Positions 12,185-56,726 of a stretch of 64,000 nt of DNA are shown here, piece by piece. The stretch is from Eukaryota sp. GEM-RC1 (taxonomy: Eukaryota). The notes under the pieces are model-generated. The model was given only the letters and a program-made list of their open reading frames with translations, was not told where the DNA came from and did not search any database. The stretch's first letter is position 1, and the number at the start of each line of letters is the position of its first letter. The stretch lies in contig JAUFOQ010000001.1 in assembly GCA_040285855.1 (NCBI GenBank), forward strand, positions 496,001 to 560,000. Reading direction: 5' to 3'. The translations under genes and the position numbers were made by a program.

Positions 12185-12246
12185 GTAGTTTTGTTAAAAG
12201 GCCACAAGAACATTGGTCTCCCTTATCTCCTTTTCTGTTACTTCTA

Positions 12247-15446: not shown

Positions 15447-15556
15447 CATTATCAGTCGTTACAAACATTCAACAAAAAATACAACTATATCTATAAAGTA
15501 CAATTTACTTTGCACAAACTTTCACAACGATCTATTAATAACACTGAAAATTGGAG

Positions 15557-17717: not shown

Positions 17718-19367
17718 ATGGATAGCAACCAAAGACAACATACTACAATTGCCCTGGGAAGCAGCTTTGCAAACCAAGAAGACTTGGTCTATCAACACAA
17801 TCTTTATACAGCTGGACAAAAAAGAAGAACTCGTGTAGTGAACAGCAGCAAGAAACGCTGGAGTGTTATATGCAAGACCAACAGCGATTGCAACTACCAT
17901 CTACATGCATCTTCACGTCGTGATGACGGAGAGTTTACCATTACAGCTTTTGAAGAACACACTTGTCGTAGACTTGCTACTACTGCAACACTAACAGCCA
18001 AAACAGTTGGAAGATCGCAACTGGACGTGACAAACTCGACTCCTCTCTCCCCCACTTCACTCTCTCGAAAAGCCAAAGCATCTCTTGGTGTTGTTCTGAC
18101 ACCGAGTAAAGCTTTACGAGGTGTACAGGAACAGAAAAAATTGTTATTTGGTGATGCAACTGAATCGTATGCTTTATTAGAAAAGTACATCCCAGCTCTT
18201 CGACTGTCAGATGCAAATCACGTTGTACATTGCGAATTTCGGGAATTACAGGATGGTAAGAGGGAGTTTGACAAGATATTTTGGGCATATGGACCCTCAA
18301 TTGAAGGTTTTAAGCATTGTAGGAGCTTTCTTACAGTCGATGCTTGTCATATTAAAACCATGAACAAAGGCCATATGATGATAGCCGTTTCCCTGGATGC
18401 CGAGGGGCAAATTTTCCCAGTTGCATTTTCTGTGGTAGGTGGAGAGACGTTGGCCAATTGGCGGTGGTTCTTGAACCAACTAAAATCAATTGTGGGAGAG
18501 CGGGAACTTACAATTGTGGCTGACCGAAACAGTGGACTTCAGACAGCACTCAGTGAAATTTTTGTTGATTGTCATGTGGCCTATTGCCTAGAACACTTAA
18601 AGGCAAATGTCAGAAATAATGGAGGTGGGACTATTTGTTCTTATTTACGGAAGGCTGCAGAGTGTATTACAGAGGAAGACCTGACAAATGTTTTGGAAGA
18701 GATGAGAGCTATTTCACCTAGAGGCTATGCATACGTACAGAAGCTGGATTTTTCCAAGTTAATTGATGTTAGATTCCAAGGAAACCGATATGGACACTAC
18801 ACATCGAATATATAGGAAAGTTTTGAACGCATGGATCAACAAAGAAAGGAAAATGCCGATTGTGAAGAGCATGGAATGGATGAGACGACGTCTAATGAAA
18901 TGGTTTTATGAAAGGAAGAAAAGATCGTTGACTATGAATGGTGTGTTAGTTGACAATGTTGAAAGAAGGTGAGTCAAATTGACGATGAAGCTAGAAGGTT
19001 AACTGTACTCCATAGTAGTGATACCATCTTTGAAGTTTTGAGTTTTCCACCAAGGATGGTGAATCTTGAAGAAAGATTCTGCAGCTGTGGAGAATGGAAA
19101 AGAACAGGGATTGTATGTGTTCATGTGCGTGCGGTGCTGTTAGCTCAAAGACTGGATTATAGTGAGTTTTGTGAAGAATTTTATACCACAAAACAATACT
19201 GTAAAACTTATGAAATTGGTTTGATGCCAGTAGCTTCTCGTCAGGAATGGGTTCCGGAAAATCTTGATGAACCCGTATTGCCAGAACTTCAACCTCCTAC
19301 AGGCAATAGACAGTCCGGAAGAGGACGAAGACAAGTGAATCGGCGAAGAGGGCTAGGAGGAAGATGA
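17718..19367 (+). pseudogene. MULE/MuDR transposase, disrupted (copy 2)
   Basis: 365-aa ORF up to the shared TAG/frameshift, followed by the SWIM region. Confidence 0.92.
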
Positions 19368-19960
19368 ATGTGTTATTGATGTTGATATTGTTGTACTATG
19401 TACTATAGTCTTTAGATGTTCAGATATGTATAAATCTGGTTTATTGTGATTTAAATAGAGACATCTTGATATCGAAAACAGCAGGAAATACAAAGAAAGA
19501 TAACAACAGAACCAATGCAGCAGAAGACTTGATCTTCACAGTGTCTATATCTAAACCCTCTCTAAAAAAAGGTGTCTATAATTGTGTAACATTGAACGTG
19601 TGGTGTCTATTTTTGGCAGTGTGGAAATCAGGTGTCTACTTTTGCAGTTGTCCCACAATATATTTGTTTGTGGGTATTGGAATTATTCTGTATTACTTGT
19701 TCTGGTCGAGTACCCAGACCCCCTGTTGTTCCGTCAAATGATCTTCAAGAACAGGCTGACGAGAAACATACTCAACTCCTAAAGCAATACCAAGAAGCTA
19801 TGGAAAAGTTCAGCCTCTGAGTCAAAAACCCGCTACTTCTTGAAGAACCAATCCGAAGTACTGAACCTCTGTCAGATGTTTAGAAGAAAGTACACATATG
19901 AACTAAGAGAAATCTTTATCTATATGGGAAGTAAGAAGCAGGAGAAGAGTAATACGCGGC

Positions 19961-22900: not shown

Positions 22901-25407
22901 GAAGCTACTCCTGACTTCCCCTACTCTTCCCCCATCGTGTTAGTCCTTTACCCCGATGGCAAAAGCCCAGATTGACTGGAAACTATTCCGGATCCTTAGG
23001 AATGAATTAATTCATTGACCAAACCACTGGACGCAAACCTGCCACGTTTCTCACATATTTCGCTCTTTCTGTCAAAAGCAAACTTCAATGCAACTTTAGA
23101 CCTTTCCAAAGGTTTCTGGCAACTTGCCCTAGACGAAAAGGACTACCTAAAGACACTTTATCCATTCCAAGCTGCTCCATCTACTTCAGAAGAGCAGTCT
23201 TTGGCTTAAAGAACGTACCAGTGTTCTTCCAGAACGGTATGGAAAACCTCTTTAAAATGCCCAACGTTTTCATTTACATCGAACTTTAACTAAAATTTCT
23301 CACTAGCTAGATCCCACCGAATATGATTCGGCCTCAAAATTGTGGCTTCGTAACCTGTTCTGACCCAATCAAGATCATTGGCGCCGTCTTCCAGAACAAA
23401 CAACGATCCATTGACCCGGATAGGATCTCCGCCATCTCAAACCTGCCAATGCCTACGACTATCAGTGAACTACGCTCCTTCATCAGCTCCGTAAACTACT
23501 TAATGGATTGAATCCCTCAATTTTGTGGCTTAGTCCAACCCTTGTCTAACTTAACCAAAAGGACGAAACAGATAAACGCTCCGTGAAAACAAAGTGGAAC
23601 TCTTCTTACACGAGAAACTTTATTAAAATTTCCAACACCTTTGCCATAATCTGTACTCTGAACCAGCCCGAAATGGTCAACTTCTTAATGACACGATTTT
23701 CTGTGACCATAAGAATATCGTCTACTTAATCAACCAGCCGGAACGCAATTGCATTGTAACTCGCTGGATTCCTCTACTGTCCAACTTTTCTTTCGGAATC
23801 ATTCACGTCGAAGGTCCAAACAACGTATTCGCCGACCTCCTTTTCCGTCTAACGCCCGCTAACCCCAGCTTAGAATCGGAATTACCTGAAACTTCAACAT
23901 GCTTTAGCTTATTTTCAATCGAACTCTACGACACTGAATACTACTTTGACGAAACCCCAACAAAAACCGAATGCCACAAGTGTGGTGAACACATGCTCTA
24001 CTTAACCATGCCCGACCACATACCCTGTGAAGGCCCATACTTCGCATGCAGAAACTGCCTCAACAAATAAGAACCCTATGAAGTTTATAACGATGACAAA
24101 CGCAGAGCCCTGCTTCACTTGTACCCGAAAGAAGACACACCCATCAAAGATTACTGTGGCATCTTCCAGCTAGACAAAGCAGGCCCTCGGAAATACATTG
24201 AACGCAGAGATGACCACATCAAAGAACTATGCTTCCGCTTCGTAAAGGAAAAGGTCTGATCAGAAACCTAGAGAAGAAGAACTCTTCACTAAAAAAACTA
24301 GTAGAACCTCCTACCAACATCAAAATAATAGAACCAGAATCGAAAATTCCATGTGGCCACTGCAGCCACGGAACCACCGAATTAGAACAACAGCCACCAC
24401 CAAGTAACCACATATCAAGAACGACTGGTCTGCCACAGTTGCAAGAAATATACAATCGATCAGTTGCTAACAGAAGCTAAAGAAAAACCAAAAACTCTCA
24501 TGAACAGCTCCTGTCTTACGATGGTACAGGCCCCCCTGTGTGCTACTCATCGACAGATGACTCCCCTTACGATTCAAAAACTCAAGACACAGTCTGGCTC
24601 GACACCCTGCGCACTCATTAGCAACTAGAGCTAAAAGACTCCAGCTACAGATGCTCCTGGGACGCCGAAGCTCAAATGTTTGTCACCCCTGATAACAAGA
24701 TCCTCTTTCCCGAATCTCTAAGAAAAGAAGTAATGTGGAACTTCCACGGCTACGCTCACTGTGGACATTCAGCCTTCTGGCAATGTCTCAAGGACATTAA
24801 AAACAGCTGCTACTCTTGGCCAACTCTGGAAACTGATGTAAAAATCACATCGACTGTTGCCACTCTTGTCAGAAGATCGCCCCAGCCTCCAAGACGACAG
24901 CCCAATCAACCGGATCCCTGTTTGCAATGAAGCCGTTCGGCAATAACCACGCTGATACTATCGGACCCTTGCCCAACGGCCAACCTGAGAAACAAGTACG
25001 TGCTTGTATTCGTAGACGCCTTTACGAGATACACCATCTTATGTCCCTCAGACAAAATCTCCTCTACGAACTCAGCATATTGTCTTATAAACTCTCTATG
25101 CACCAACTTCGGCATACCGGACACGATCCACTCAGACAATGGACTTGAGTTTTGTAACGCCACATTTAAAGCATTATGTGCCTTTCTGAACATAACCAAC
25201 TCCTTTTCTCTCCCTCACCACCATCAAAGTAATGGCCTGGTTGAGCAGAGAAACCGAGAAATCAACTAAACTCTGAAGAGATTTCTCCTAGACTTAAACG
25301 ACTACCAAAACTGGTCGACACACCTGCCTATGGTGCAGCTGATGATCAACAATCAACGCCACTCAGGAACCAGATGCACCCCATGGGAACTAATGTTTGG
25401 ACGCTCA
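19961..25407 (+). mobile_element. Degenerate Ty3/Gypsy element (copy 2; candidate LTR 19961-20122)
   Basis: As 3947-9395. Confidence 0.92.
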
Positions 25408-26732
25408 AATGGTTTGGATTGATTTTCTCAATCGTTTTGATTGCATTACAGGCCTTTTCCTGATTTAGTTGTTAATAAATTCATACTCATTGTCTGTTCT
25501 TGTTCTGGCAGCATCAAAAACAAATTGGCGAGCAACTTGAATCTCTTGACCAGAGAGGTTATAGTACCATAATTTTGAGTCTTCGAGTGTTTGGTTCATT
25601 TGTCAGTCTCTTTAAGGTCATAATGCACATATAAATATAGATCCAGAAATACAAACATATCTACAAGCCTCACAAGCAACATACATTCACCGTCCGTTTG
25701 TTCTTAAGTTAATGAATAAACTACACTCAATATGCCAGGATTGACTATGATTTTGTTAGAAGAAGAAGACCCCAAAGATTCTATTGTTATTAGCACTTTT
25801 TCTGAGGTATATCGAGTTGCTCCTTCCAATAATGATGAAATCACGTTACGTTTTCAGAAACTGTCGGTTAAATTGATCGTTGAAACCCTTTTTAAGACCA
25901 CAAAAGAACTTTTTGTAATGTTTTTGAAATAATATTGTCATAGCGTTTATTGTTCAACAAGTGCAAATAAAAAATGGAGCTTGTTCTTCACCAGTGAACT
26001 GAAGTTTTCAATACCAGCTGTAGATCCCAATTGGTTCACAATTCAGGTCAGCAATTGAATTGTTTAGTTGTACCTTATGTTTGACAGTGACAAAACCAAA
26101 ATCCACAAAGTTGTACAATTTGTTTCATCAAAATCAACAAGGTATTTTTGGGTTTCAACTGTATAAATACAATAAATTTCAGAAACTACAATTTGATAAG
26201 AGCGAAGCAACACCCATCGATACCAAATTTTATCACAGCTTTACCGTCATTCAAAGAACTCATTGCTATTAACGCTTTGGAAACAACAAAGGGAATTGTT
26301 TTTCCAAACTTGAAAAACTATTTAATCATAAAGTATGATTCAAAACGTTTGTTTATCTCCTCTTCAAAAATCCCCACAATGTTTTCAGAAAATGTATTCA
26401 AAATCTAAAAAAAGTCAACTCTGTCATAAGAGACCACAAATGAACTCATGGCAAATAATGATGTGATTCTTACAATTCTCTTTATTTGATACACTGTATC
26501 TTCCTTTTTCACTATTAATCTTTTGGTCTCCCAAAACTCTCCTAATATATCATATCTCTTTCTGACGTGACCTGTTCCTATTCTATGAACTCTATCACTT
26601 TTATTACACTGGTCGTCAATTAATTAACTTGACCGCGTTCTACTTTCTCCATTAGAGAATACAAGATGGACATGAGCATTACGAAATTCAGTTGATAAGT
26701 TGAGTAATTCTATAACATAACCTATGTTATTA

Positions 26733-28199
26733 TTAACTTTCATCAACGATTTCAAGTACATGATCACTACGAAACAATGAAACAAATAAATAATAGTTAC
26801 CACTACTTAATCTGGGAAGAGTTCCAGTAAGATTAATTGAAGAATTGCTTACCGATTTGATTGTCAAAGAGTAATTAATTAGATTTACATTGATTTCGAG
26901 TAATTCACTGGGATTCCACTGATCACGGGTTCCTGAGAGACGACCAATCACACTACAATTACCCTTAAAATTGAAGGTACCATGAGCAGTCTGATAGCAC
27001 CACCCAGTAACACTAAACTTTGACTCGTCAATGACTCCAACAAAATGATGACCGATAAGCCCCTGGTACTTCAACTTCCAAGTATAAACATTACCTGGAA
27101 GAAGTGGACCTTCTCCCAAGATATTTCGAGAATCATTACCACTACTTGTAACAAAAACTGTCTTTCCATCCCCACTCACTTGTAACTGAGAATGTTTCCT
27201 AGTTTGAGAGAATCTAAAAACATTCAATCCATTAGTTGCTTGATCAAGTAGTTTGATTTCAGTAATTGTCTTTTTTAGTTGTTCCATCTCTACTTGTAAA
27301 TTGTGAATAATATCTGAATAATTTACATTTAAAGTATGCATTTCTGATAATAAATTAGAGTTGGCGGTTTCTAAATTTGAGTTTGCTTTTTCAGAGAATC
27401 AATTTCAGTCTGCAAATCAGCAATGATTTGACTTTGTTCCAATAATTTCAAATTCTCTTTTTTTACTCAATGTGATTTCTTGATCAAGTCTACAGATTTG
27501 TTGATTTAATTTCAAAATTTCACCAACAAGATGATCATTCCTAACTTTCAAAGAAGATTCATCAGTCGAAGAAGTTGAGAAATCACCAGCAACAGCTTCC
27601 AAGTCCTGCACATTATTCAAAACTTCAATTATTTGATTAATTTTTGGCCTACATAAAGGATCTGGATTCATACATTTCTGAATTACTTTCTGTACACACT
27701 CCGGTACAGATCTCCCAAAAGGTAATGCTTTCCCAGTGTTTTTAGCATCAATAATCGAAAGAGGATCTTCTTCACTAAAAGCAACCTTGTTTTCAAATAA
27801 TTCATAAAGACAAACTCCAAGTGAATAAATATCATTTAAAGGAGAAACAACATTTCTAAATTGTTCTGGAGCTGCATAAGTATAAGACACATCAAATGAT
27901 CGAGGAACTAGAGTTGTAGCAGAAAGGTTTTTAGAGGTACCGAAATCAGCAACTCTAACGTGATCATCGACTAACAGAATGTTTGCTGGTTTTAGATCCC
28001 CATGAACTACAGACTTTAGGTGGAGACGTAAGTACATGGAGGACGTAAGCTATGAGAACGAAGCAGCCAGTGTATCAGAGTTAGGTTGCTTGGAAGAGAT
28101 ACTAGAAAAGGAGGAAACATTGAGCACTTAACTGCTAGCAAGTGTTACATTATCATCAGATGAACGACTACTCTTCAGTGGATGTTCAGGATTAGACAT
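26733..28199 (-). pseudogene. Chimeric truncated kinase - coiled coil - SPRY gene (copy 2)
   Basis: Same junction at 28026/28027; in-frame ATG at 28199. Confidence 0.85.
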
Positions 28200-28261
28200 G
28201 TAGTTTTGTTAAAAGGCCACAAGAACATTGGTCTCCCTTATCTCCTTTTCTGTTACTTCTA

Positions 28262-29592
28262 ATGTCATTCTCGCTTCCCCCAGCAGAAACTCTTTCTATC
28301 ATTCTCGATGAACCCTCTTTGTGTAACCAAACCATTTCATTCGGCGGGGAATCCATCGAGGTGAACAAATCTGTCCTTGCTGTGCACTCAACGTACTTCC
28401 GATCCCTCTGGTTCTTAGAGTTTGGGGATAAACTTGAGAACCCCATCGACTTCTCCCATCTTCCCGTCGATTCCGACAACTTCTTCGCTTTCCTCAAGTC
28501 CTTCTTTGGAAAGTCATTCACCCTCAACGAAAGCAACGCCTATAACTTTTTCTACCTCGTCCACTACTTCCAAGTGGATAAACTCATTCACCACGTGGAA
28601 AACCACCTAAACACCCATCTTGTAACATGGGCTTGGTTAAAACCGTTCATTAAAGAAGCAAGTGAAAGAAATGACTTGAGAGCTCTGGATTTCATTGGTC
28701 CTTTCTTTTCCAAAATTGATGACCTGTTGATTGATGACGTGATGGCAATCACTACTGAAGGGTTTAAAACTCTTGTAAAATACTGCACTTGCACTGAATC
28801 ACTGTCGTGGTTTATTAAATCAATGGTGGAGTCAATTTTGAATCAAGATTTTGATTTCAAAGAATTTGTAAATGTTTTGAATTCTTTTTCAATTGAAGTT
28901 TTTCATATGAACAATGGAATCAAAAGTTGTTTATTCCTTTAAAAAATGTTGAAAAATTGGAACCCGATTTGATGAAGTTTTTGTTTACAAGAGTAAAAGA
29001 TCGTTGTGTGGACTCTTTAGTGAATGAAAACTGTAATTTAGTTTCGGATATTAACAAATTACAAAGTGAAATTGAAGAATTAAAGAAGTTAGCTGAAGAT
29101 AATCAAGCAAAAATGATTAAATTCTCTCAAACTAAGAAACATTCTGAGTTACAAGTTAGTGGGGATAGAAAGAGAGTTGTTGTTGGAAATGGTGATGATC
29201 TTGTGTATAGAAATATATTGGGAGAAGATCCACTTCTTCCAGGTAATAATTATACTTGGAAGTTGAGGTACCAGGGGACTACTGATTGTCTTTTTGTTGG
29301 AGTCATTGACGAGTCAAAGTTTAGTGTTGATGGTGATTGTTTTCAGAGTGCTCACTGTTTTGAAAATGATGGTGATCGCATTCATGGATCTTTTTCAGGA
29401 ACTCGTGCTCAATGGAATCCTGGTGAATTACTCGAAATCAATGCAAATTTAATTAATTACACTTTGACAATCAAATCCGTGAGTAATTCTTTAATTAATC
29501 TTACTGGAATTCTTCCCAGATTAAGTAGTGGTAATTATTATCCGTTTGCTTTGTCATGTTTTAGTAATCATGTACTTGAAATCGTTGAATAA
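28262..29592 (+). CDS. BTB/POZ - coiled coil - SPRY-like protein (copy 2, single frameshift)
   Basis: ORFs 28262-28942 and 28927-29592 join by adding one T at ~28900 (EVFSYEQWNQKLFIPLK). Confidence 0.88.
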
Positions 29593-29741
29593 AGTTGATT
29601 TCATTTTCATTGTGCTAAGTCTCCTCATTTAAAGTAGTAATCAACTTAACTTGTCTTGAAGCTAATTCATGTAGAAGACGTCAATTGCTCGAAAATGACG
29701 TCTCTGTAGCTATGATGAAATAACTTATTTTAAATTTGATA

Positions 29742-30210
29742 CATACATCTAATAATTATTATCCTCAAAGACAGATTGCATAACTGGAAATTCTTACATT
29801 ATTCTCATAATGTCTGTCAAGAGATAATAAAGCGCTAGATACGGAAGTCACCATACCTTTAGAAATAGCAAACTCAATTCGTTTTTTCCAAAATCTACAG
29901 TAACGTCAAACCTCAATATTCATATAGATTTCAAGTAAATAATATATTAAATATTTACAAACATCGATAGACATAACATCAGCAATAATGAGAGATCCAT
30001 CTAGGTCATGAAATATTACATCACCACGGCTATTTCCAAACAATTTGTCATCGTCCGTATCATCAAACAAACCAGCCAGAACTGATTCTAAAACGGAAAC
30101 TATTCCATAAGATTTCCACATATATACAATTGATCCCTATGCTGTTAGAAACATTCATTAAATTTGTGTTGCAAAAGTGGTATTTTTTCCTTAGCCATGT
30201 CAAGTCGATC
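29742..30210 (-). mobile_element. CRE-like non-LTR 3' fragment (copy 2)
   Basis: As 13725-14190. Confidence 0.7.
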
Positions 30211-30602
30211 ATTATAATCCAAGTTTTCGAAAATATTTGTTAGTTTTTGTTGTAATTTTTTCAGACAAAACTGAATGTGAGTCAGACATCTTGCAAGTAT
30301 TTCAGATATGTCAAAAGGTAATTTGATCAAGGCGGAAAGAATTAGGGTTAATAAGTGTATTAATAAGTGGATTGATGATGTACTAGCTGATAGTTGCGTG
30401 AACGTTGATCTAGATAGCATAGATTATTGATTACCATTATAAAATGATAATGAAGTTTGCAACGCTGATGTGGGGTGCAGAAGTGGCAGAAAGAGAGGAA
30501 ATTCTTTAAGTGTACCGGACACATTCTATCAGTGCACACTCCCCAACCATGTGCGTTTATTAAGAGGTGACTGCATTTAGTTAATACTATTAACCATTCT
30601 CC

Positions 30603-31466
30603 CAGGGCTGCCGAAAAATGAGGTGCAGTGCAATATATTGCAATAAATGTTATTGCAATACATTTTGGGTTTGCTTCACTAGTACAATTTTGTTGTTATA
30701 CTGGAGTTATTGAAATATTTGGACTCGAGTAATTCACAGCATAAGTTGGTCATTGTGTTCTTAGACTCTGTGAGGTAGTAGCATATATGACTATATGAAG
30801 ATCCAAATTGGGATGTTGATCCTAATTCTACATGACTTCATGTAAACAACCCAATACGAAAACATCCTCAAATCATTTCATATATTGGAACTTCCCTTTC
30901 AGGTAAGTAATGTAAAGATGCATATTTTCGCATCTTTGGGGAATGATCTCTTTCTGTCTTTGCAATTACAACAACATTGATGCCACTTGTTGAAGGGAAA
31001 CAATAGTTATGAATACAACAATACAAGGGATTCATAACTATTCTAAAGTCTTTGGCTAACATTGAGACGAGAACACCATTGATATGACACCATTCATTTG
31101 CTATCGTCCTTATATCCGACTTGTTTCACGATTGAATAGCGATTTCGGAGCTTGATCGGGTGATCTGTTTCTGTATTGTAGTCTTTACTTGTAGATTAAT
31201 CTCTCTTCATACAGGGACCGACTTTGCTGTAAAATTTGTTTCACCCCACAATAATTCTTCCTGCTTAATTAATGATATAAGATCACACTCAATGTACTCA
31301 CAGGAACATTGCTACCTGCAGTACGTCAATGTATTATCTCTGTAGAGTGTAGCAAATATTGCAATATAGTGCTGTATACTTATTGTAATGAGCAACAATA
31401 TCCAATAAATTTTCTGCAATATTGAAAACGTTTAATGTAGATTGCAATATATTTTTCGGCATCCTG
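30603..31466. mobile_element. Older hAT-type non-autonomous element (copy 2)
   Basis: As 14585-15446. Confidence 0.7.
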
Positions 31467-32659
31467 CATTATCAGTCGTTACAAACATTCAACAAAAAAT
31501 ACAACTATATCTATAAAGTACAATTTACTTTGCACAAACTTTCACAACGATCTATTAATAACACTGAAAATTGGAGAGTATCTTTTAAAGTCTTCATTCT
31601 CCTTAATATAATAGTATTCTTCCTCAGATGATAAAATGTATTTTGACTGTTCATAATCATTTTAAAAAAAAATCATTTACGAGAACTTGATGAGAGGGTG
31701 GAATTGTCTAGAATTCTATCAGCCCAACCAAAAATAATCTGATGCTAATAATGACATTTGACTTGTTGATTCTTGCATGTGTCAAATATGTGTAACATCG
31801 TTTTTCAATTTGGCAAAGTGCTTGTTTGCGTACCGTAATTGAAAGTGAATAAGACAGTATTGATCTAGACAATACCCTAATCTAATTGATGATATTAGAT
31901 AAAAATTGTCAGTTGCTTCTAGATTTGAATGAGAAAGACGTCTTATGAAAGAATGGTTTATAACATAATAAAATAAGCTGTGTATCCAAGTGGTGGTGTC
32001 ATTCAATGGAGACAGGAAATCTTGATCGTTTAGGACTTGACACCAAGCTAGTTGGTTTTCGAGTAATTGTAAAAAATTTAATTATGTCGAGCGTACGGTA
32101 ATCCAGACAGTGATTGGTTATCCTTAAATAAAACAGAACCCGTTGTCCAGTTTGAGTACGGACGGACTTTTGATTTTTCGAAAGTAACCGTAGAAACAAT
32201 TTGTGGTTGGGTAAGAATTGGTCTACTGCCTAATGAGTGAAAAAGAAGAAATTTGCGTTCAATAACTGTGTGGTTGCATACAACGTCTCACCCGCTGATT
32301 ACACTGCTTTTAAGAAAGTGTTTCAAAAAAACAAATCCGTTTCTTTGACATCAAACAATTACAGAATTGAATCCCATGCTTAGTGGACTAGATAACCAAA
32401 TCGTTGATACAAGGGACACGTGAAACCAGTCTGTAGTAAGCTGTGGAAAGCTGATAGTTGAAGAACTTAAAAATTGGTGTTATATTTGGTGTTCTCATGT
32501 AGTCGTTCTGTATTTTATATTCAGTCCTTATATTAAAGAGAGAATTTTAACAGTATCTTAAGTGCTTGATATATCACATTTTTCATATATATCACAATCA
32601 GCGTCCACAACAATGCCAACGCCATTAAAATGATCAGAAGTTGGGAGATGTGTATGCAA

Positions 32660-33075
32660 CAGTGTTCGAAGACACGCGTGGACACGTTTGGACACGGACA
32701 CGGTGTCATTTCAAAAACACGCAAAAAGACACGGCGTGTGTACGTGTTTTTCTGCAAAAACCTAGAAAACATCGGAAGTACCTTTAACAATAGACTACAA
32801 TGCTATCAAAAAGTGGCAAAAATACTGACACATTGCGCTCTCAATCAACTCGACAGAACCACAGAATCCAAGATTCAGTGGTGAGATGTCAGTTAAAGGC
32901 CAGAATTGGCCCAAAACAATGTTTGTATAATCAAACTCTGCATCATGGATCAGAAACTTTTTTTCAAAAAAACACGCAAAGACACCCAAAAGACACATCA
33001 AAGACGCCGTGTGGACACGCGTGTTAACAGCGACACGGTGTCTTTTAAAAAACATGTGGGAAATTTCGAACACTT
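32660..33075. mobile_element. Complete 416-bp hAT-type MITE
   Basis: TIRs cagtgttcgaa / ttcgaacactt; perfect 8-bp TSD gtatgcaa (32652-32659, 33076-33083); GACAC subterminal repeats. Confidence 0.9.
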
Positions 33076-33934
33076 GTATGCAAATGGTTAAGCAAGAAAT
33101 TTATTCGCTAACATTTCTGGTTTAACCATGTAAAACTATCACATTATTAATGATAAACTCCAGATAGACTTTACTTAATGGATATACATGCAATTAGGTA
33201 TTGACAATTTGTTGAGTACCTTTAACCGCACATGTTACCTAAGAAACAACTTCTAATTAACTTGAACAGTTGTTAACCAACAATACATAGCCAAGCATTT
33301 CATCTCCTAAAAAATTGCAACATTATGATCTTAGACAACCACATTACGATGAGATTATTCTAAGTTAATGTCACAAGTATCAAAATTTTTCAACATTTAA
33401 GGAGGACAAATATTCTTGTTTCATCAACTCATTGTAGTATGTTATAACTTGTTCCCTGAGTGTTATACTATAGTTAGATGGGTGTATAATGTAGATTAAA
33501 TGACACGTTCACATTTCATAACCAATGATTTAATTGACAACTAACAGACTCTAAACCTGTTAGTTAGTTATTTTAAAGTGTGTGAGTAGAAGTATGTTGT
33601 ATAATAAAACAAAAGTCTTAACGACATATATCTTGCTTAAGGCAATATATATTTTGCCTACTTGGAAATATGATAAGTTCACATTTCATAACCAATGATG
33701 GACGTGACGTCTACAACTTTCTAAACACGTTTTCCTACTGTTGCATGGGGTTTTGGCAAAAGCTTTGTGTATGAAGAATGGAGAATACAAAAACCTATAT
33801 TTCTACTCATGCATCTTACATTTATCAGGAAAAATAGTAACAATATATGAATGAAATTCATTTCTAGACACATACAATGGTGTCTGTTCAAAAATAGACA
33901 CTTAACAAATTTCTTCTCACACACACTTTACAAA

Positions 33935-35584
33935 ATGGATAGCAACCAAAGACAACATACTACAATTGCCCTGGAAAGCAGCTTTGCAAACCAAGAAGAC
34001 TTGGTCTATCAACACAATCTTTATACAGCTGGACAAAAAGAAGAACTCGTGTAGTGAACAGCAGCAAGAAACGCTGGAGTGTTAAATGCAAGACCAACAG
34101 CGATTGCAACTACCATCTACATGCATCTTCACGTCGTGATGACGGAGAGTTTACCATTACAGCTTTTGAAGAACACACTTGTCGTAGACTTGCTACTACT
34201 GCAACACTAACAGCCAAAACAGTTGGAAGATCGCAACTGGACGTGACAAACTCGACTCCTCTCTCCCCCACTTCACTCTCTCGAAAAGCCAAAGCATCTC
34301 TTGGTGTTGTTCTGACACCGAGTAAAGCTTTACGAGGTGTACAGGAACAGGAAAAATTGTTATTTGGTGATGCAACTGAATCGTATGCTTTATTAGAAAA
34401 GTACATCCCAGCTCTTCGACTGTCAAATGCAAATCACGTTGTACATTGCGAATTTCGGGAATTACAGGATGGTAAGAGGGAGTTTGACAAGATATTTTGG
34501 GCATATGGTCCCTCAATTGAAGGTTTTAAGCATTGTAGGAGCTTTCTTACAGTCGATGCTTGTCATATTAAAACCATGAACAAAGGCCATATGATGATAG
34601 CCGTTTCCCTGGATGCCGAGGGGCAAATTTTCCCAGTTGCATTTTCTGTGGTAGGTGGAGAGACGTTGGCCAATTGGCGGTGGTTCTTGAACCAACTAAA
34701 ATCAATTGTGGGAGAGCGGGAACTTACAATTGTGGCTGACCGAAACAGTGGACTTCAGACAGCACTCAGTGAAATTTTTGTTGATTGTCATGTGGCCTAT
34801 TGCCTAGAACACTTAAAGGCAAATGTCAGAAATAATGGAGGTGGGACTATTTGTTCTTATTTACGGAAGGCTGCAGAGTGTATTACAGAGGAAGACCTGA
34901 CAAATGTTTTGGAAGAGATGAGAGCTATTTCACCTAGAGGCTATGCATACGTACAGAAGCTGGATTTTTCCAAGTTAATTGATGTTAGATTCCAAGGAAA
35001 CCGATATGGACACTACACATCGAATATATAGGAAAGTTTTGAACGCATGGATCAACAAAGAAAGGAAAATGCCGATTGTGAAGAGCATGAAATGGATGAG
35101 ACGACGTCTAATGAAATGGTTTTATGAAAGGAAGAAAAGATCGTTGACTATGAATGGTGTGTTAGTTGACAATGTTGAAAAGAAGGTGAGTCAAATTGAC
35201 GATGAAGCTAGAAGGTTAACTGTACTCCATAGTAGTGATACCATCTTTGAAGTTTTGAGTTTTCCACCAAGGATGGTGAATCTTGAAGAAAGATTCTGCA
35301 GCTGTGGAGAATGGAAAAGAACAGGGATTGTATGTGTTCATGTGCGTGCGGTGCTGTTAGCTCAAAGACTGGATTATAGTGAGTTTTGTGAAGAATTTTA
35401 TACCACAAAACAATACTGTAAAACTTATGAAATTGGTTTGATGCCAATAGCTTCTCGTCAGGAATGGGTTCCGGAAAATCTTGATGAACCCGTATTGCCA
35501 GAACTTCAACCTCCTACAGGCAATAGACAGTCCGGAAGAGGACGAAGACAAGTGAATCGGCGAAGAGGGCTAGGAGGAAGATGA
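33935..35584 (+). pseudogene. MULE/MuDR transposase, disrupted (copy 3)
   Basis: Same motifs and the same TAG/frameshift, with several private substitutions. Confidence 0.92.
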
Positions 35585-36177
35585 ATGTGTTATTGATGTT
35601 GATATTGTTGTACTATGTACTATAGTCTTTAGATGTTCAGATATGTATAAATCTGGTTTATTGTGATTTAAATAGAGACATCTTGATATCGAAAACAGCA
35701 GGAAATACAAAGAAAGATAACAACAGAACCAATGCAGCAGAAGACTTGATCTTCACAGTGTCTATATCTAAACCCTCTCTAAAAAAAGGTGTCTATAATT
35801 GTGTAACATTGAACGTGTGGTGTCTATTTTTGGCAGTGTGGAAATCAGGTGTCTACTTGTGCAGTTGTCCCACAATATATTTGTTTGTGGGTATTGGAAT
35901 TATTCTGTATTACTTGTTCTGGTCGAGTACCCAGACCCCCTGTTGTTCCGTCAAATGATCTTCAAGAACAGGCTGACGAGAAACATACTCAACTCCTAAA
36001 GCAATACCAAGAAGCTATGGAAAAGTTCAGCCTCTGAGTCAAAAACCCGCTACTTCTTGAAGAACCAATCCGAAGTACTGAACCTCTGTCAGATGTTTAG
36101 AAGAAAGTACACATATGAACTAAGAGAAATCTTTATCTATATGGGAAGTAAGAAGCAGGAGAAGAGTAATACGCGGC

Positions 36178-39100
36178 TGTTGAGAATGTTAGCTTCCACT
36201 ACCCACAATACTGAAGACCCATCAATATATGTTCAGACTTTATGGGATGCTACATTTCCTGTGTATTATGGACAGCACAAAATCTATGCAGAGATACACA
36301 TGCACATGATCCCGTTATACATATATAACTGGGTCAACAGTCTTTCAAGTCCTGTTTGTTGTCAGCTTAAGTGCGATCCTCACGTTCTGCCCTGTAACCA
36401 TGATCTTTTCGTTGTTGCTTCTTTTTTCTTCTCCTTTCCCAGTTTTTAAGGTTGGTGGCAATCAAACCTTTACTCGTTCTACAGTCAATATGACCACCAT
36501 CGACTGTTCTACTTTTCTGTCTCTTTCGATGATTTCCATTACTCCTATTCGAGCTGCTGCTAAATCGTTAATTTATCAAATGAAGCAGGCCGAAAAGCCT
36601 GAGCTGCTCATCCCTGATACTTCTATTTCTTACTTGTGTTTCTTGTAGAACTGGTCAATCGTATCGATACATTTCAGTCCATTCACGATCTCCTTACGAG
36701 TGTCAAAGAACTTTATGACCGTTGCCAAAATGACTTCAAGCAATTTTCTACGGTAATATTTACCATAACAAAAAAACACGTGTACAAAACGATTAAGGAC
36801 TATTTGACTGTTAATCAGTACCGAGTCGCTATGGATGAGCCCGAGTTATTGTCCAGTCCTTTAACTGCTTAGCATCACTATCACTATGACTTTACACTCA
36901 ATTTATAACATTATGACCTCAAGCTAAAGGCCACCACGATCTAGAAAAACTTTAAGGTTGAAGTTCTGAATGGATAAAATTCCTTCATCCATCGAACAGA
37001 AATACAAGAAGACGAATTGGACAAAGCAAATACTCAAGCAAAGTCTTGAATTTGAGTTACCACAGTGAAATTTTGAAGGGAAATTCAGCGTGCCATTTTT
37101 TCTTCTTCCCAGGTTCCCCAAGCGCCTTCTTATGGAAGATTTGCGTATACCTCAGCCCCGAGACTCATTCCCTCGATATCCCCAAAGAAAAGCCCTCCTC
37201 CTCTGCGAAAGAGAAGTCCTCGCTCGATTTCGACAGCGAAGAGTTATCCGCCCTAGCCCAACGCGCGAACCTCACCGAAGTTGTATGTGACCCACAATGC
37301 CCATGAACTTCCACGCTTACATTTCACATGGAGTCATAGATCTCCTAAAGATGACTCTTCCCTCCGCTCTCTCATCTCAACCCGAGTTGTGGGAATATCT
37401 CATCTCCCTGACACTCTGCTCTTCTGATTCTGAAGCTCGCTCTCTCCTATCCTCCCTTTCTACGGATAACTCAATGCATTCACCAACCACTCGCCTAAAC
37501 AAATACCTCCTCGACTTCCGCCTCACAATCCCTAGATGCCGCCACTGCATAAACAAGCTATCCCCCGTAATAGAGTCCTTCAATAAGGGTATTTCAATCC
37601 GCTCAGTGAATAACGCTCTTTGGGATGAATTCAAATGTGGAAACATCACCGACCTTGGTGACCTGGTTCGCTTCACAATGAAAACCTTCGAACATCTCAA
37701 TGCTCTCTCTTGGACTTTGGCAATAAGACCTCCAATCCTCCTCGCAACAACAGGATCCCTAAGAACTTCACAAACTGGCCTCGACCCCACTCCGATTACG
37801 GAACTCCTTCTTCAAGACCATTTTCATCACTCTCAAATTCCAAATCTCAAGATTTCGAAACTCGATCCCCCTCAACAATGGTACCCCTTCTGAACGCTTC
37901 TGCAACTACTGTAAGAAATCCGGCAATACCATCGACTTCTGTCGAGATCCCGACTGTAATCGAAGCAAATTCTCTAACACTTCACCTCAAACAAAGAAGA
38001 AACCGCGAAACCCCACGCTTAACAGAACCTACAGCACCAGACACAACTCTGTTCCCCGTTAAACTAACCTTGTCGCTAAAACTCACAATTCTGAAACCGA
38101 CTACCCTTCAGAAAACACTCCAATTGAGTTTGACTTAGAATTCCCAAAATTCTTCAACAAACCTTATCCAGGATCGAATACGTACACAGTCACTAACTCT
38201 TCTGATAACTTTATCCCTCACCTGAATCGCCCTAACAAAGTCTCTTCATCATCCAATCTCTCTCCTGACATCATCTCTGTTCCTGATGAAATAGTCTCCC
38301 CGTCGAATCGAAGCAAGGACGCAAGTATTGGCTACGAACGACCTCACGCTTCGAACGCAGTTCTTAGCACTGGCGCAAACGATCAAATGTTTGAGAACCT
38401 GGATTCTGAGACTATGTTCAAAACTTCTTCTCCTTTCCCCTTCGATTTAATGAAACAAAAATTTCAGAAATCCTAATCAACAACACCCTTATCCTAGCCA
38501 CAGTTGACTGTCAAACGAGTTGCTTCACCTCTGATATAGCTAAGACAACCAACTGCAGGGTTATCCCGTCACCTCTCTCCTTCACCCTGTCAGACGGCAA
38601 GACAGCTAAGTGCTCCGGTAACGCCCACTGTACTCTCACCTTTTGCTTCGATAGACTGATCTCCGACTCAGTACATGTTAGGACATCTATTCCGATTATC
38701 CCAGGCAAAGCTCAAGTCCTGATCAGGGTTGACATTCTAAAGAGACTAGGTCTTCTTAAAAAGAACGGAATCATGATCAAACTTGACGAAGATCACAAGC
38801 GTATCCTTGACGCTGAAGCATCCCACAACCCATGTCCCTAACTCCTAAGGTAAGATCTACCATAGTAAATGAACTCACAACCAGTGAGCTATCAGATTGC
38901 CGCATCACACTTCCCGACAATCATAAACAGCTCTTGGTAAACCTCATGAACTTTTATCATGATATTTTTGGCTCACCCCGCCCTTTGGGCATAGATTGAC
39001 CAGCAATGCCATAAACTTTTACAACGAAGAAGAAAATTGTTTTATAAAAGGCCGCCCCTTGCACCTTGAGAAACTTCTAATTGCAAACACCTAATTAAAG

Positions 39101-41624
39101 ATGGCTTCGCCGAAGAAGCTACTCCTGACTTCCCCTACTCTTCCCCCATCGTGTTAGTCCTTTACCCCGATGGCAAAAAGCCCAGATTGACTGGAAACTA
39201 TTCCGGATCCTTAGGAATGAATTAATTCATTGACCAAACCACTGGACGCAAACCTGCCACGTTTCTCACATATTTCGTCCTTTCTGTCAAAAGCAAACTT
39301 CAATGCAACTTTAGACCTTTCCAAAGGTTTCTGGCAACTTGCCCTAGACGAAAAGGACTACCTAAAGACACTTTATCCATTCCAAGCTGCTCCATCTACT
39401 TCAGAAGAGCAGTCTTTGGCTTAAAGAACGTACCAGTGTTCTTCCAGAACGGTATGGAAAACCTCTTTAAAATGCCCAACGTTTTCATTTACATCGAACT
39501 TTAACTAAAATTTCTCACTAGCTAGATCCCACCGAATATGATTCGGCCTCAAAAATTGTGGCTTCGTAACCTGTTCTGACCCAATCAAGATCATTGGCGC
39601 CGTCTTCCAGAACAAACAACGATCCATTGACCCGGATAGGATCTCCGCCATCTCAAACCTGCCAATGCCTACGACTATCAGTGAACTACGCTCCTTCATC
39701 GGCTCCGTAAACTACTTAATGGATTGAATCCCTCAATTTTGTGGCTTAGTCCAACCCTTGTCTAACTTAACCAAAAGGACGAAACAGATAAACGCTCCGT
39801 GAAAACAAAGTGGAACTCTTCTTACACGAGAAACTTTATTAAAATTTCCAACACCTTTGCCATAATCTGTACTCTGAACCAGCCCGAAATGGTCAACTTC
39901 TTAATGACACGATTTTCTGTGACCATAAGAATATCGTCTACTTAATCAACCAGCCGGAACGCAATTGCATTGTAACTCGCTGGATTCCTCTACTGTCCAA
40001 CTTTTCTTTCGGAATCATTCACGTCGAAGGTCCAAACAACGTATTCGCCGACCTCCTTTTCCGTCTAACGCCCGCTAACCCCAGCTTAGAATCGGAATTA
40101 CCTGAAACTTCAACATGCTTTAGCTTATTTTCAATCGAACTCTACGACACTGAATACTACTTTGACGAAACCCCAACAAAAACCGAATGCCACAAGTGTG
40201 GTGAACACATGCTCTACTTAACCATGCCCGACCACATACCCTGTGAAGGCCCATACTTCGCATGCAGAAACTGCCTCAACAAATAAGAACCCTATGAAGT
40301 TTATAACGATGACAAACGCAGAGCCCTGCTTCACTTGTACCCGAAAGAAGACACACCCATCAAAGATTACTGTGGCATCTTCCAGCTAGACAAAGCAGGC
40401 CCTCGGAAATACATTGAACGCAGAGATGACCACATCAAAGAACTATGCTTCCGCTTCGTAAAGGAAAAGGTCTGATCAGAAACCTGGAGAAGAAGAACTC
40501 TTCACTAAAAAAACTAGTAGAACCTCCTACCAACATCAAAATAATAGAACCAGAATCGAAAATTCCATGTGGCCACTGCAGCCACGGAACCACCGAATTA
40601 GAACAACAGCCACCACCAAGTAACCACATATTAAGAACGACTGGTCTGCCACAGTTGCAAGAAATATACAATCGATCAGTTGCTAACAGAAGCTAAAGAA
40701 AAACCAAAAACTCTCATGAACAGCTCCTGTCTTACGATGGTACAGGCCCCCCTGTGTGCTACTCATCGACAGATGACTCCCCCTTACGATTCAAAAACTC
40801 AAGACACAGCCTGGCTCGACACCCTGCGCACTCATTAGCAACTAGAGCTAAAAGACTCCAGCTACAGATGCTCCTGGGACGCCGAAGCTCAAATGTTTGT
40901 CACCCCTGATAACAAGATCCTCTTTCCCGAATCTCTAAGAAAAGAAGTAATGTGGAACTTCCACGGCTACGCTCACTGTGGACATTCAGCCTTCTGGCAA
41001 TGTCTCAAGGACATTAAAAACAGCTGCTACTCTTGGCCAACTCTGGAAACTGATGTAAAAATCACATCGACTGTTGCCACTCTTGTCAGAAGATCGCCCC
41101 AGCCTCCAAGACGACAGCCCAATCAACCGGATCCCTGTTTGCAATGAAGCCGTTCGGCAATAACCACGCTGATACTATCGGACCCTTGCCCAACGGCCAA
41201 CCTGAGAAACAAGTACGTGCTTGTATTCGTAGACGCCTTTACGAGATACACCATCTTATGTCCCTCAGACAAAATCTCCTCTACGAACTCAGCATATTGT
41301 CTTATAAACTCTCTATGCACCAACTTCGGCATACCGGACACGATCCACTCAGACAATGGACTTGAGTTTTGTAACGCCACATTTAAAGCATTATGTGCCT
41401 TTCTGAACATAACCAACTCCTTTTCTCTCCCTCACCACCATCAAAGTAATGGCCTGGTTGAGCAGAGAAATCGAGAAATCAACTAAACTCTGAAGAGATT
41501 TCTCCTAGACTTAAACGACTACCAAAACTGGTCGACACACCTGCCTATGGTGCAGCTGATGATCAACAATCAACGCCACTCAGGAACCAGATGCACCCCA
41601 TGGGAACTAATGTTTGGACGCTCA
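36178..41624 (+). mobile_element. Degenerate Ty3/Gypsy element (copy 3; candidate LTR 36178-36339)
   Basis: As 3947-9395. Confidence 0.92.
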
Positions 41625-42949
41625 AATGGTTTGGATTGATTTTCTCAATCGTTTTGATTGCATTACAGGCCTTTTCCTGATTTAGTTGTTAATAAATTCA
41701 TACTCATTGTCTGTTCTTGTTCTGGCAGCATCAAAAACAAATTGGCGAGCAACTTGAATCTCTTGACCAGAGAGGTTATAGTACCATAATTTTGAGTCTT
41801 CGAGTGTTTGGTTCATTTGTCAGTCTCTTTAAGGTCATAATGCACATATAAATATAGATCCAGAAATACAAACATATCTACAAGCCTCACAAGCAACATA
41901 CATTCACCGTCCGTTTGTTCTTAAGTTAATGAATAAACTACACTCAATATGCCAGGATTGACTATGATTTTGTTAGAAGAAGAAGACCCCAAAGATTCTA
42001 TTGTTATTAGCACTTTTTCTGAGGTATATCGAGTTGCTCCTTCCAATAATGATGAAATCACGTTACGTTTTCAGAAACTGTCGGTTAAATTGATCGTTGA
42101 AACCCTTTTTAAGACCACAAAAGAACTTTTTGTAATGTTTTTGAAATAATATTGTCATAGCGTTTATTGTTCAACAAGTGCAAATAAAAATGGAGCTTGT
42201 TCTTCACCAGTGAACTGAAGTTTTCAATACCAGCTGTAGATCCCAATTGGTTCACAATTCAGGTCAGCAATTGAATTGTTTAGTTGTACCTTATGTTTGA
42301 CAGTGACAAAACCAAAATCCACAAAGTTGTACAATTTGTTTCATCAAAATCAACAAGGTATTTTTGGGTTTCAACTGTATAAATACAATAAATTTCAGAA
42401 ACTACAATTTGATAAGAGCGAAGCAACACCCATCGATACCAAATTTTATCACAGCTTTACCGTCATTCAAAGAACTCATTGCTATTAACGCTTTGGAAAC
42501 AACAAAGGGAATTGTTTTTCCAAACTTGAAAAACTATTTAATCATAAAGTATGATTCAAAACGTTTGTTTATCTCCTCTTCAAAAATCCCCACAATGTTT
42601 TCAGAAAATGTATTCAAAATCTAAAAAAAGTCAACTCTGTCATAAGAGACCACAAATGAACTCATGGCAAATAATGATGTGATTCTTACAATTCTCTTTA
42701 TTTGATACACTGTATCTTCCTTTTTTCACTATTAATCTTTTGGTCTCCCAAAACTCTCCTAATATATCATATCTCTTTCTGACGTGACCTGTTCCTATTC
42801 TATGAACTCTATCACTTTTATTACACTGGTCGTCAATTAATTAACTTGACCGCGTTCTACTTTCTCCATTAGAGAATACAAGATGGACATGAGCATTACG
42901 AAATTCAGTTGATAAGTTGAGTAATTCTATAACATAACCTATGTTATTA

Positions 42950-44773
42950 TTAACTTTCATCAACGATTTCAAGTACATGATCACTACGAAACAATGAAAC
43001 AAATAAATAATAGTTACCACTACTTAATCTGGGAAGAGTTCCAGTAAGATTAATTGAAGAATTGCTTACCGATTTGATTGTCAAAGAGTAATTAATTAGA
43101 TTTACATTGATTTCGAGTAATTCACTGGGATTCCACTGATCACGGGTTCCTGAGAGACGACCAATCACACTACAATTACCCTTAAAATTGAAGGTACCAT
43201 GAGCAGTCTGATAGCACCACCCAGTAACACTAAACTTTGACTCGTCAATGACTCCAACAAAATGATGACCGATAAGCCCCTGGTACTTCAACTTCCAAGT
43301 ATAAACATTACCTGGAAGAAGTGGACCTTCTCCCAAGATATTTCGAGAATCATTACCACTACTTGTAACAAAAACTGTCTTTCCATCCCCACTCACTTGT
43401 AACTGAGAATGTTTCCTAGTTTGAGAGAATCTAAAAACATTCAATCCATTAGTTGCTTGATCAAGTAGTTTGATTTCAGTAATTGTCTTTTTTAGTTGTT
43501 CCATCTCTACTTGTAAATTGTGAATAATATCTGAATAATTTACATTTAAAGTATGCATTTCTGATAATAAATTAGAGTTGGCGGTTTCTAAATTTGAGTT
43601 TGCTTTTTCAGAGAATCAATTTCAGTCTGCAAATCAGCAATGATTTGACTTTGTTCCAATAATTTCAAATTCTCTTTTTTTACTCAATGTGATTTCTTGA
43701 TCAAGTCTACAGATTTGTTGATTTAATTTCAAAATTTCACCAACAAGATGATCATTCCTAACTTTCAAAGAAGATTCATCAGTCGAAGAAGTTGAGAAAT
43801 CACCAGCAACAGCTTCCAAGTCCTGCACATTATTCAAAACTTCAATTATTTGATTAATTTTTGGCCTACATAAAGGATCTGGATTCATACATTTCTGAAT
43901 TACTTTCTGTACACACTCCGGTACAGATCTCCCAAAAGGTAATGCTTTCCCAGTGTTTTTAGCATCAATAATCGAAAGAGGATCTTCTTCACTAAAAGCA
44001 ACCTTGTTTTCAAATAATTCATAAAGACAAACTCCAAGTGAATAAATATCATTTAAAGGAGAAACAACATTTCTAAATTGTTCTGGAGCTGCATAAGTAT
44101 AAGACACATCAAATGATCGAGGAACTAGAGTTGTAGCAGAAAGGTTTTTAGAGGTACCGAAATCAGCAACTCTAACGTGATCATCGACTAACAGAATGTT
44201 TGCTGGTTTTAGATCCCCATGAACTACAGACTTTAGGTGGAGAAACTTAACAGCTTGACATAGCTCCTTAGCGTATCTCAGAGTTGATGACGTGAGAGAG
44301 TTTGGGGAGGGGATGGAAGAAGAAGCTCTTTCCATTACGATGCCAATGGAATCTTGGAAGACTGAGATTCCAAAGACACGAAGTATAGAAGGATGGTTGA
44401 GGTTGATAAGGAGATTCAGTTGTTGTTGAAGTTTGAGCTTTCCTTCCTGCGTTAGAGACAACATTTTGACGGCAACGGGGAGATCGAACCATGTAGCAGC
44501 GTATACAATAGTAAAACCTCCTTCCGCAATCCTTTCTCCAAGAATGATCTCGTCGGGTGGAATTTGGGGGCAGAGATCGCCATGTAGAGAAGCTCGGACA
44601 AGATCCTGCACAGAACAGTTCACCTTTCTCTCCTTAAGGCAGTTGGTAGCACAGAGGGGACATTTATTCAGTTCAGCTGAACATTTAGAGCAAGCAGTGT
44701 GACCTTCGCCACAGATGAGTAGGGGAAGACGGTTGGAGAGATTGAAAGACTCACAGCAGTGGAAGCATTCCAT
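42950..44773 (-). CDS. RING finger - TKL-like protein kinase - coiled coil - SPRY-like protein (~607 aa; two compensating homopolymer indels)
   Basis: RING CFHC...CGEGHTACSKC...CPLC; kinase AEGGF, VAVK, HGDLKPAN, DFG, APE. ORFs 43634-44773 and 42950-43558 are in the same frame and are bridged by coiled coil KENLKLLEQSQIIADLQTEIDSLKK if the T7 (~43675) and T5 (~43604) runs are each T6. Confidence 0.88.
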
Positions 44774-56720: not shown

Positions 56721-56726
56721 AGTGTA

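Follow-up and report, generated by a model that had tools for sequence, protein, structure and literature searches.

SPRY modules with a conserved framework and hypervariable loops on BTB and RING-kinase heads in a free-living metamonad

Background

In vertebrates, SPRY/B30.2 domains with hypervariable loops are pathogen sensors, as in TRIM5alpha, the finTRIMs and the NLR-B30.2 proteins. The present study concerns two neighbouring genes on opposite strands, a BTB-SPRY gene (+) and a RING-kinase-SPRY gene (-), in a stretch of 64,000 nucleotides from Eukaryota sp. GEM-RC1 (the whole of which is hereafter called the window), together with the gene family to which they belong. The open reading frames (ORFs) of the window are recorded on a GEM-RC1 contig of 3,977,043 bp. 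GEM-RC and TZLM1-RC are described as isolates of Skoliomonas, free-living, anaerobic and bacterivorous metamonads of soda lakes (PMC11316075, PMC11603281).

Class-IV TRIMs such as TRIM5alpha and the finTRIMs possess an N-terminal RING, a central coiled coil and a C-terminal SPRY, and are reported to form large, clustered, lineage-specific expansions in which variation falls in the SPRY loops upon a conserved framework (PMC2657112). The genes described here resemble them in these respects, with a putative RING in one of the two window genes, but that gene has a TKL-like kinase in the place of the B-box, most of the family has BTB heads (58 of 66 long gene models), positive selection is only suggested and the host is a free-living metamonad. 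Elsewhere, FBXO45 combines an F-box with a SPRY. In SPSB1-4/GUSTAVUS (SPRY plus SOCS box) a SPRY that binds the target is likewise joined to a cullin-docking module, and SPSB2 and SPSB3 are among the structural matches listed for the module described below. SPSB proteins dock on cullin-5 through a C-terminal SOCS box, however, whereas the present family is predicted to dock on cullin-3 through an N-terminal BTB, and it differs further in its intercalated coiled coil, its hypervariable loops and in having two orders of magnitude more members. MATH-BTB proteins such as SPOP, and BTB-Kelch proteins, also join a BTB(-BACK-like) head that is conserved to a substrate-binding domain that varies, but in the present family binding would be through a SPRY that follows a coiled coil rather than through MATH or Kelch. 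Thomas reportedly described in 2006 that MATH-BTB and F-box proteins of nematodes and plants evolve adaptively.

SPRY-based recognition adaptors with diversified loops are known; the lineage in which they are found here is unexpected and the combinations of heads are unreported. The words 'SPRY' and 'BTB' have no occurrence in the main text of the genome paper (its supplements falling outside this count), no description of BTB-coiled-coil-SPRY or RING-kinase-coiled-coil-SPRY proteins was found in that main text, and a full-text search of the literature for 'BTB-SPRY' returned an unrelated match only.

Two genes sharing one SPRY module

The two genes are probably paralogues in a family of head-coiled coil-SPRY proteins restricted to Skoliomonas, the loops of which are predicted to bind targets for ubiquitination or phosphorylation. 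The BTB gene (28262..29592, + strand, identified from ORFs and a Pfam BTB match) encodes a BTB domain at residues 17-119 (E 1.2e-13), followed by a short coiled coil and then by a SPRY module of 159 codons (29113..29589, +), which was delimited by alignment to the kinase-linked module and scores 279 bits against a hidden Markov model of the family. It consists of two overlapping ORFs, 28262-28942 and 28927-29592, split by a -1 frameshift in a T5 run at 28899-28903, and the reading across the break agrees with an intact paralogue, P0001 (519 aa). When the profile of the family alignment (A1) was compared with the PDB it aligned to A55, KBTBD2, KBTBD4, KLHL3 and SPOP, with BTB proteins only among the best 60 of 90 matches. 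The alignment to A55, a BTB-BACK protein, runs through position 213, and a Pfam BACK match occurs only in P0100.

The RING-kinase-SPRY gene (42950..44773, - strand, identified from ORFs and a Pfam Pkinase match at E 2.8e-36) is the sole full-length copy within the window and encodes a putative RING, a TKL-like kinase, a coiled coil and a SPRY module of 162 codons (42953..43438, -), the sequence used for modelling with AlphaFold2 (AF2) and for the Foldseek search. Its two ORFs, 43634-44773 and 42950-43558, share one frame and are parted by two compensating frameshifts, one in an A7 run at 43675-43681 and the other in an A5 run at 43604-43608, and an intact paralogue, P0111 (607 aa, about 90% identical), is continuous across these sites. 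The N terminus matches Sina_RING at E 1.8e-4 with 22 bits, under the cut-off of 29.3, and the Cys/His spacing, taken directly from the translation, is of the C3HC4 type (C-x2-C ... C-x3-H-x2-C-x2-C ... C-x2-C). The kinase domain occupies residues 79-311, with HGD in the catalytic loop and both DFG and APE present; the closest solved kinases are MLK1, DLK and TAK1, and Pfam gave no B-box match in this gene. An earlier reading of the sequence alone had proposed that one SPRY module is carried by two different effector heads, and the intact paralogues P0001 (BTB) and P0111 (RING-kinase) bear this out.

At the DNA level a self-comparison of the window by blastn pairs 29117-29599 on the + strand with 43434-42949 on the - strand at 81.7% identity across 493 columns, in which 13 gaps open (E 2e-110), and at the protein level 120 of 198 positions are identical (61%, 13 gap positions, BLASTP). 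A 36-nt block that the sequence-only reading had found shared between them is present in the window in five exact copies, three kinase-linked and two BTB-linked, and was not found in any of 100 shuffles. Differences between the modules are significantly clustered, the observed window variance being reached in none of 5000 codon shuffles, and the four divergent patches with indels that had been pointed out were recovered, the indels falling in the first and third patch. It had also been claimed that homology starts abruptly at FSQT. This is correct for the pair itself, in which the DNA match begins at 29117 and the codons upstream of the shared module are saturated (synonymous divergence, dS, 0.81; nonsynonymous divergence, dN, 0.69), but it does not extend to the family, where homology takes in the coiled coil: the kinase-type P0004 and the BTB-type P0013 match at 70% over 282 residues, coiled coil included, so the abrupt start is specific to the window pair.

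Fold of the module

The SPRY fold is a bent beta-sandwich of two antiparallel sheets with about 13-15 strands. The AF2 model of the RING-kinase module, obtained with the 61-row family alignment A1 (a single-sequence model, at a predicted local distance difference test score, pLDDT, of 41.7, being unusable), has 14 strands, a pLDDT of 94.0 and a predicted template modelling (TM) score of 0.88. Foldseek returned 339 matches at E <= 0.001, of which the best was RanBP9 (5ji7, E 1.6e-8, TM 0.74), and those listed, which make up about 35 of the top 50 ranks, are nearly all SPRY, PRYSPRY or B30.2 domains (RanBP9/10, MID1/2, TRIM7/9/15/67, SPSB2/3 and DDX1) with TM values of 0.70-0.78. A profile of the module only (A2) matched the RanBP9 SPRY 5ji7 in the PDB over profile positions 6-162 at a borderline E of 9.5e-4, RanBP9 being the only solved protein matched below E 0.01, and the nearest clusters of the ESM Atlas, as judged from language-model features, belong to PF00622 SPRY (score 0.96). 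The fold, the structural matches, the profile and the language-model features agree that the module is, as had been read, a SPRY, albeit a divergent one that is nearest to the RanBP9 type. RanBP9 and RanBP10, whose IUS-SPRY belongs to a subunit of the CTLH E3 ligase, are the best structural match among those listed, but identity is 18-20% and the present family is without LisH and CTLH domains. RanBP9 itself is conserved and single-copy, and is not known to have hypervariable loops.

Hypervariable loops and the surface they may form

Column entropy along the module peaks at positions 24-31, 55-60, 70-92, 98-101 and 148-152 and is near zero elsewhere, and the first, second, third and last of these peaks are the four patches noticed in the window pair. 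The family as a whole has five or six hypervariable loop segments on a conserved head and SPRY framework. Over the 2278 pairs that can be drawn from 68 core modules, mean identity is 0.78 in the framework and 0.31 in the hypervariable segments, and module pairs at 90-95% framework identity have just 47% of their loop residues in common. Four loop segments occur among the 68 sequences in 66, 65, 67 and 66 distinct variants respectively; since nearly all are distinct the loops are not reused as cassettes, and no such reuse between otherwise different genes was found in the core set. When 49 full-length proteins of BTB type were divided into blocks of 10 residues, those of the head had 0.3-0.9 bits and those of the loops 1.3-2.0 bits; the BTB/BACK-like head is conserved like the SPRY framework, the coiled coil varies mainly by length, and within the SPRY variability is greatest in the loops, which exceed the head. 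The conserved framework with hypervariable loops first read from a single pair therefore holds family-wide, and entropy, pairwise identity and the comparison of head with loop blocks all show that variation is not uniform across the family.

In an up-and-down sandwich the odd-numbered loops are on the side that faces away from both termini. The most variable loops of the module, L3, L5 and L13, are all odd-numbered in the predicted strand order, in which the beta7-beta8 hairpin, itself variable, likewise turns at an odd-numbered loop, L7, and mean entropy is 1.58 bits in odd loops as against 1.03 bits in even loops (Mann-Whitney p 0.019). The binding loops A-E of SPSB proteins are reported to sit on the face opposite the termini (PMC2923778), and the spacing of the patches appears to resemble that of SPSB1 loops B-E. 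We infer that the hypervariable loops would occupy the face on which SPRY domains canonically bind their ligands, away from both termini.

Size, heads and distribution of the family

The large repertoire that the sequence-only reading had foreseen amounts to at least 107 gene models, 66 of them long (355-2000 aa) and 41 shorter. Eukaryota sp. GEM-RC1 is the source of all the long models, every one of which has the module at its C terminus; 40 of the shorter models are named GEM-RC1 and the remaining one is the window's own. The contig that holds the window carries 88 of the 107. These are spread along its full locus-tag range (000001-001435), and they would constitute several percent of its gene models, provided that the tags number the models consecutively. 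A constant effector head with a diversified SPRY surface is the design of the dominant gene family of a chromosome-scale contig in a free-living metamonad.

The common plan is a head, a coiled coil and a C-terminal SPRY. Besides the BTB-headed majority of the long models, five have a kinase and three have neither; Pfam BTB is matched by 52 of the 61 aligned members, and coiled-coil-type Pfam families match 39/61 and 35/61, and the single-sequence AF2 model (pLDDT 41.7) places a helix ahead of the module, at residues 8-36. An exhaustive HMMER search of 1.84 billion representatives yielded only 44 clusters; for 20 of these the origin was looked up and traced to GEM-RC1 in 15 cases, to S. litria TZLM1-RC in four and to a weakly matching BACK-SPRY protein of Gocevia in one; of the 12 clusters at E <= 1e-30, three are named GEM-RC1 and one S. 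litria. One PA14 protein among the clusters was discarded as a spurious match, and two metagenome scans, with a single module and with alignment A1, found no relative.

The relatives in the sister species, S. litria TZLM1-RC, have RING-B-box heads (P0094 and P0098, with the full TRIM-like domain order) or an MLKL_N-kinase-B-box head (P0076), and further heads in GEM-RC1 include B-box (P0095), Ras-BTB (P0090) and BTB-BACK (P0100); B-boxes occur among the relatives only in P0076, P0094, P0095 and P0098. One GEM-RC1 protein, P0049 (GEMRC1_007480), has in place of a BTB or kinase a hydrophobic N-terminal head with a precomputed Pfam match to Reticulon (PF02453), and it may be a membrane-anchored form. 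The tripartite motif was called exclusive to metazoans by Sardiello et al. in 2008 (PMC2533329). Relatives with the TRIM order (RING-B-box-coiled coil) and with MLKL_N-kinase-B-box nevertheless occur in a metamonad.

The idea that these are shuffled modules stood in part. The coiled-coil-SPRY unit does occur on several unrelated heads, but repeated shuffling events are neither shown nor excluded, the module tree being star-like with long end branches and only 5 of its 80 inner branches well supported. The head label requires eight changes on this tree for nine kinase rows, against a shuffled mean of 8.7, and by an approximately unbiased (AU) test the six core modules that are linked to a kinase are compatible with one clade (p 0.53).

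Proposed function

The diversity of the loops makes the family likely to be a set of diversified target-recognition adaptors for ubiquitin ligases. In the mechanism envisaged the coiled coil would dimerise the protein, the SPRY loops would set target specificity and the head would pass the target to ubiquitination through cullin-3 or RING, or to phosphorylation. The BTB forms are predicted to dimerise and to dock on cullin-3 as substrate adaptors, and the RING-kinase forms to combine E3 ligase activity with a non-RD, TKL-like kinase. Non-RD kinases are said to have been linked to innate-immune signalling by Dardick and Ronald in 2006. The loops would have diverged faster than neutral through diversifying selection on ligand specificity, and new specificities would come from tandem duplications of the kind seen in the transposon-rich window, after which the loops would change rapidly. 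The ligands might be non-self or selfish elements that are themselves variable, for instance viruses, transposons or the products of intracellular or prey bacteria. The family is possibly used in defence, a role that is suggested by analogy with TRIM5alpha and the finTRIMs and by the MLKL_N head of one relative.

If the loops are indeed under diversifying selection, the family would provide a tractable case for the study of protist recognition repertoires and of whether TRIM-like architectures arose more than once. It is conceivable, though rather unlikely, that a metamonad has independently built a TRIM/finTRIM-like form of innate recognition, with over 100 clustered genes, unique SPRY surfaces and interchangeable heads joined to them through a coiled coil, renewed by transposon-rich tandem duplication; were this so, a tripartite-motif-style diversifying immune repertoire would exist outside animals, near the base of Fornicata.

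Selection and rival explanations

Rates of substitution were estimated from one DNA pair only, the window's own modules, for which dS is 0.32 and dN 0.19 over the whole module. Hypervariable codons were set from the other 59 rows, which avoids circularity, at three entropy thresholds, and gave dN/dS ratios of 1.5, 1.6 and 2.2, as against 0.34-0.55 elsewhere in the module; the proportion of nonsynonymous differences (pN) at the hypervariable codons exceeds the module-wide proportion of synonymous differences (pS; Fisher p 0.0002-0.0014). Positive or diversifying selection on the loops is suggested by these comparisons.

A number of results, together with the restriction to a single DNA pair, weigh against the interpretation of the family as diversified recognition adaptors. 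The Pfam SPRY model is unmatched by either window module even at E <= 10 and is not among the 25 most frequent families over the 61 members (E <= 1), and a phmmer search of the PDB with a single module gave nothing relevant (a chance match at E 1.1). The only Pfam SPRY match among the relatives is that of P0107 from Gocevia, the most distant of them (E 3.9e-5, 24.2 bits, below the cut-off of 26.3), so that the identity of the module as a SPRY rests on fold and profile instead. The loops include exceptions to the odd-even pattern in L6, an even loop that varies, and L11, an odd one that is conserved, and in the close pair winK/P0111 (about 90%) the main loops are identical and the differences lie mostly outside them. 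The diversifying loops of the sequence-only reading find support at the independently defined sites but not in the four patches as originally drawn, where dN/dS is 0.76 (framework 0.30) because patch dS is high as well (0.79 against 0.18 in the framework), which may come partly from uncertain alignment around the indels; even at the independently defined sites, the excess falls short of significance when it is set against the synonymous sites of these codons, which are few (p 0.28-0.38). Finally, both window genes are frameshifted as assembled, and 41 of the 107 are short models that mostly have no head, so many copies may be pseudogenes.

It might be argued from such figures that constraint has been relaxed in a decaying, transposon-associated family, in which the loops drift neutrally, many copies are pseudogenes and no diversified recognition takes place. 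Three frameshifts in the two window genes, the short models, the embedding of the locus in MULE and retroelement debris, and a loop dN/dS whose excess over 1 lacks significance when measured against the synonymous sites of the loops themselves are all in accord with decay, but it is nonetheless an improbable explanation. A framework dN/dS of 0.30-0.55 and the strong conservation of BTB heads in the 49 full-length paralogues show that the family is under purifying selection, pN in the loops is greater than pS over the whole module, and an intact 607-aa paralogue exists. The gene-breaking frameshifts, moreover, all lie in homopolymers (28899-28903, 43604-43608, 43675-43681, 11444, 13275 and 13374), as do 26/26 and 10/11 of the indels between copies of a tandem array that is described below, including the A-run of the first kinase frameshift. 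The Skoliomonas assembly is reported to consist of nanopore R9.4 reads with Illumina polishing (PMC11316075), and since both frameshifts and between-copy indels fall in homopolymers, the frameshifts of the window genes are more likely to be residual nanopore homopolymer errors than real lesions.

Concerted evolution would account differently for the same contrast: gene conversion would homogenise the framework and heads, synonymous sites included, and the loops would be older, unconverted segments with an inflated dN/dS. The star-like tree with its long end branches, a 36-nt identical block in a pair only 82% identical overall, the concentration of members on one contig and the higher patch dS fit this explanation, as does the distribution of synonymous differences at codons for identical amino acids (5/15 in the patches, 11/92 in the framework, p 0.047). 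With independently defined hypervariable sites, however, the dS difference is not significant (p 0.19-0.68), and loop cassettes were not found to recur in genes that differ in the rest of their sequence. A pairwise homoplasy index (PHI) test at the protein level gave no recombination signal, the observed PHI lying above the permuted mean with no excess of compatibility between neighbouring sites, but clustered hypervariable sites bias the test against detection and it is therefore treated as uninformative. A candidate conversion among winK, P0111 and winB, in which P0111 matches winB at 8 of the 18 winK/P0111 differences, was rejected, the residues concerned being the family consensus. As the explanation of the loops concerted evolution must be considered doubtful, and to the same degree as decay, but it is compatible with a role of the family in diversified recognition and not exclusive of it, and homogenisation of the framework by gene conversion is a live alternative, or complement, to selection.

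A last possibility is that the function is endogenous and unconnected with defence, each SPRY domain targeting a different cellular protein for regulated turnover or signalling, or serving in self or mating recognition, in the manner of housekeeping SPRY adaptors of the BTB, SPSB or CTLH/RanBP9 types. RanBP9/RanBP10, a subunit of the CTLH ligase, comes nearest among solved proteins in fold as well as in profile, and the window contains nothing that would connect the genes with infection. The more than 100 copies, restricted to one lineage and each with loops of its own, for which the sister species has only few and divergent relatives, are better explained by rapid birth and death than by conserved housekeeping substrates, however, and one relative has an MLKL_N death-fold head, so that an endogenous role appears very unlikely.

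A tandem array of 16 kb

The span 28262-44773 that contains the two genes is one unit of a 16-kb tandem array, a point absent from the sequence-only reading. The array (1..44243, unit about 16.0 kb) was recognised from self-blastn, periodic composition and between-copy differences, and as assembled comprises some 2.75 copies (1-16015, 16016-32036 and 32037-44243) that are 99.5-99.7% identical by self-blastn. Its left end is beyond the edge of the window and its right end is inside the RING-kinase gene, so that each inner junction gives a 5'-truncated kinase-SPRY copy. The array is a very recent local tandem duplication of a transposon-rich unit with one gene of each type, BTB-SPRY and kinase-SPRY, of which each unit copies both and truncates one, and it offers a concrete example of how such a repertoire grows. 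The copies differ almost only in the length of homopolymers, which is a mark of residual nanopore error in a repeat beyond the reach of short-read polishing.

The BTB gene considered above is array copy 2. Copy 1 of the BTB-coiled coil-SPRY gene lies at 12247..13580 (+), as determined by comparison of the array copies, and has two further homopolymer indels within the SPRY, at 13275 and 13374. A 5'-truncated kinase-coiled coil-SPRY copy is found at 26733..28037 (-, from ORFs and self-blastn), where the kinase begins at residue 178, severed by the array junction at 28026/28027. A second such copy, belonging to array copy 1, is found by the same comparison of copies at 10720..12022 (-), and an A-run within it differs by 2 nt from array copy 2.

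The bulk of each unit is made up of a MULE transposase with a SWIM finger and a degenerate retroelement integrase. The MULE/MuDR-type transposase at 34054..35584 (+) is split over two ORFs (Pfam MULE E 5.5e-14, SWIM E 1.8e-8) and recurs at matching places in units 1 and 2, and the fragmented integrase (Pfam Integrase_H2C2 and rve) is at 40893..41486 (+). The third unit has about 194 extra bases at 33032-33225 when compared with units 1 and 2, where the corresponding points are 994/995 and 17009/17010.

Other features of the window

An intact ORF of 394 aa at 46415-47599 (+) encodes an alpha/beta-hydrolase (Abhydrolase_1 E 4.4e-30) with an N-terminal hydrophobic stretch, and its exact sequence is absent from the protein collection that was consulted. 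Further pieces of transposons, consisting of retroelement integrase fragments and an HTH_32 transposase-like piece, are present at 57520-57882 and 56353-56733. The region 58000-64000 is low in GC (26-32%, as against 33-44% in the rest of the window) and carries a split helicase (ResIII/DEAD at 60198-60605, Helicase_C at 59362-59856) together with two DUF4116-repeat ORFs (58677-59072 and 60942-61718), and may be a foreign or mobile insertion.

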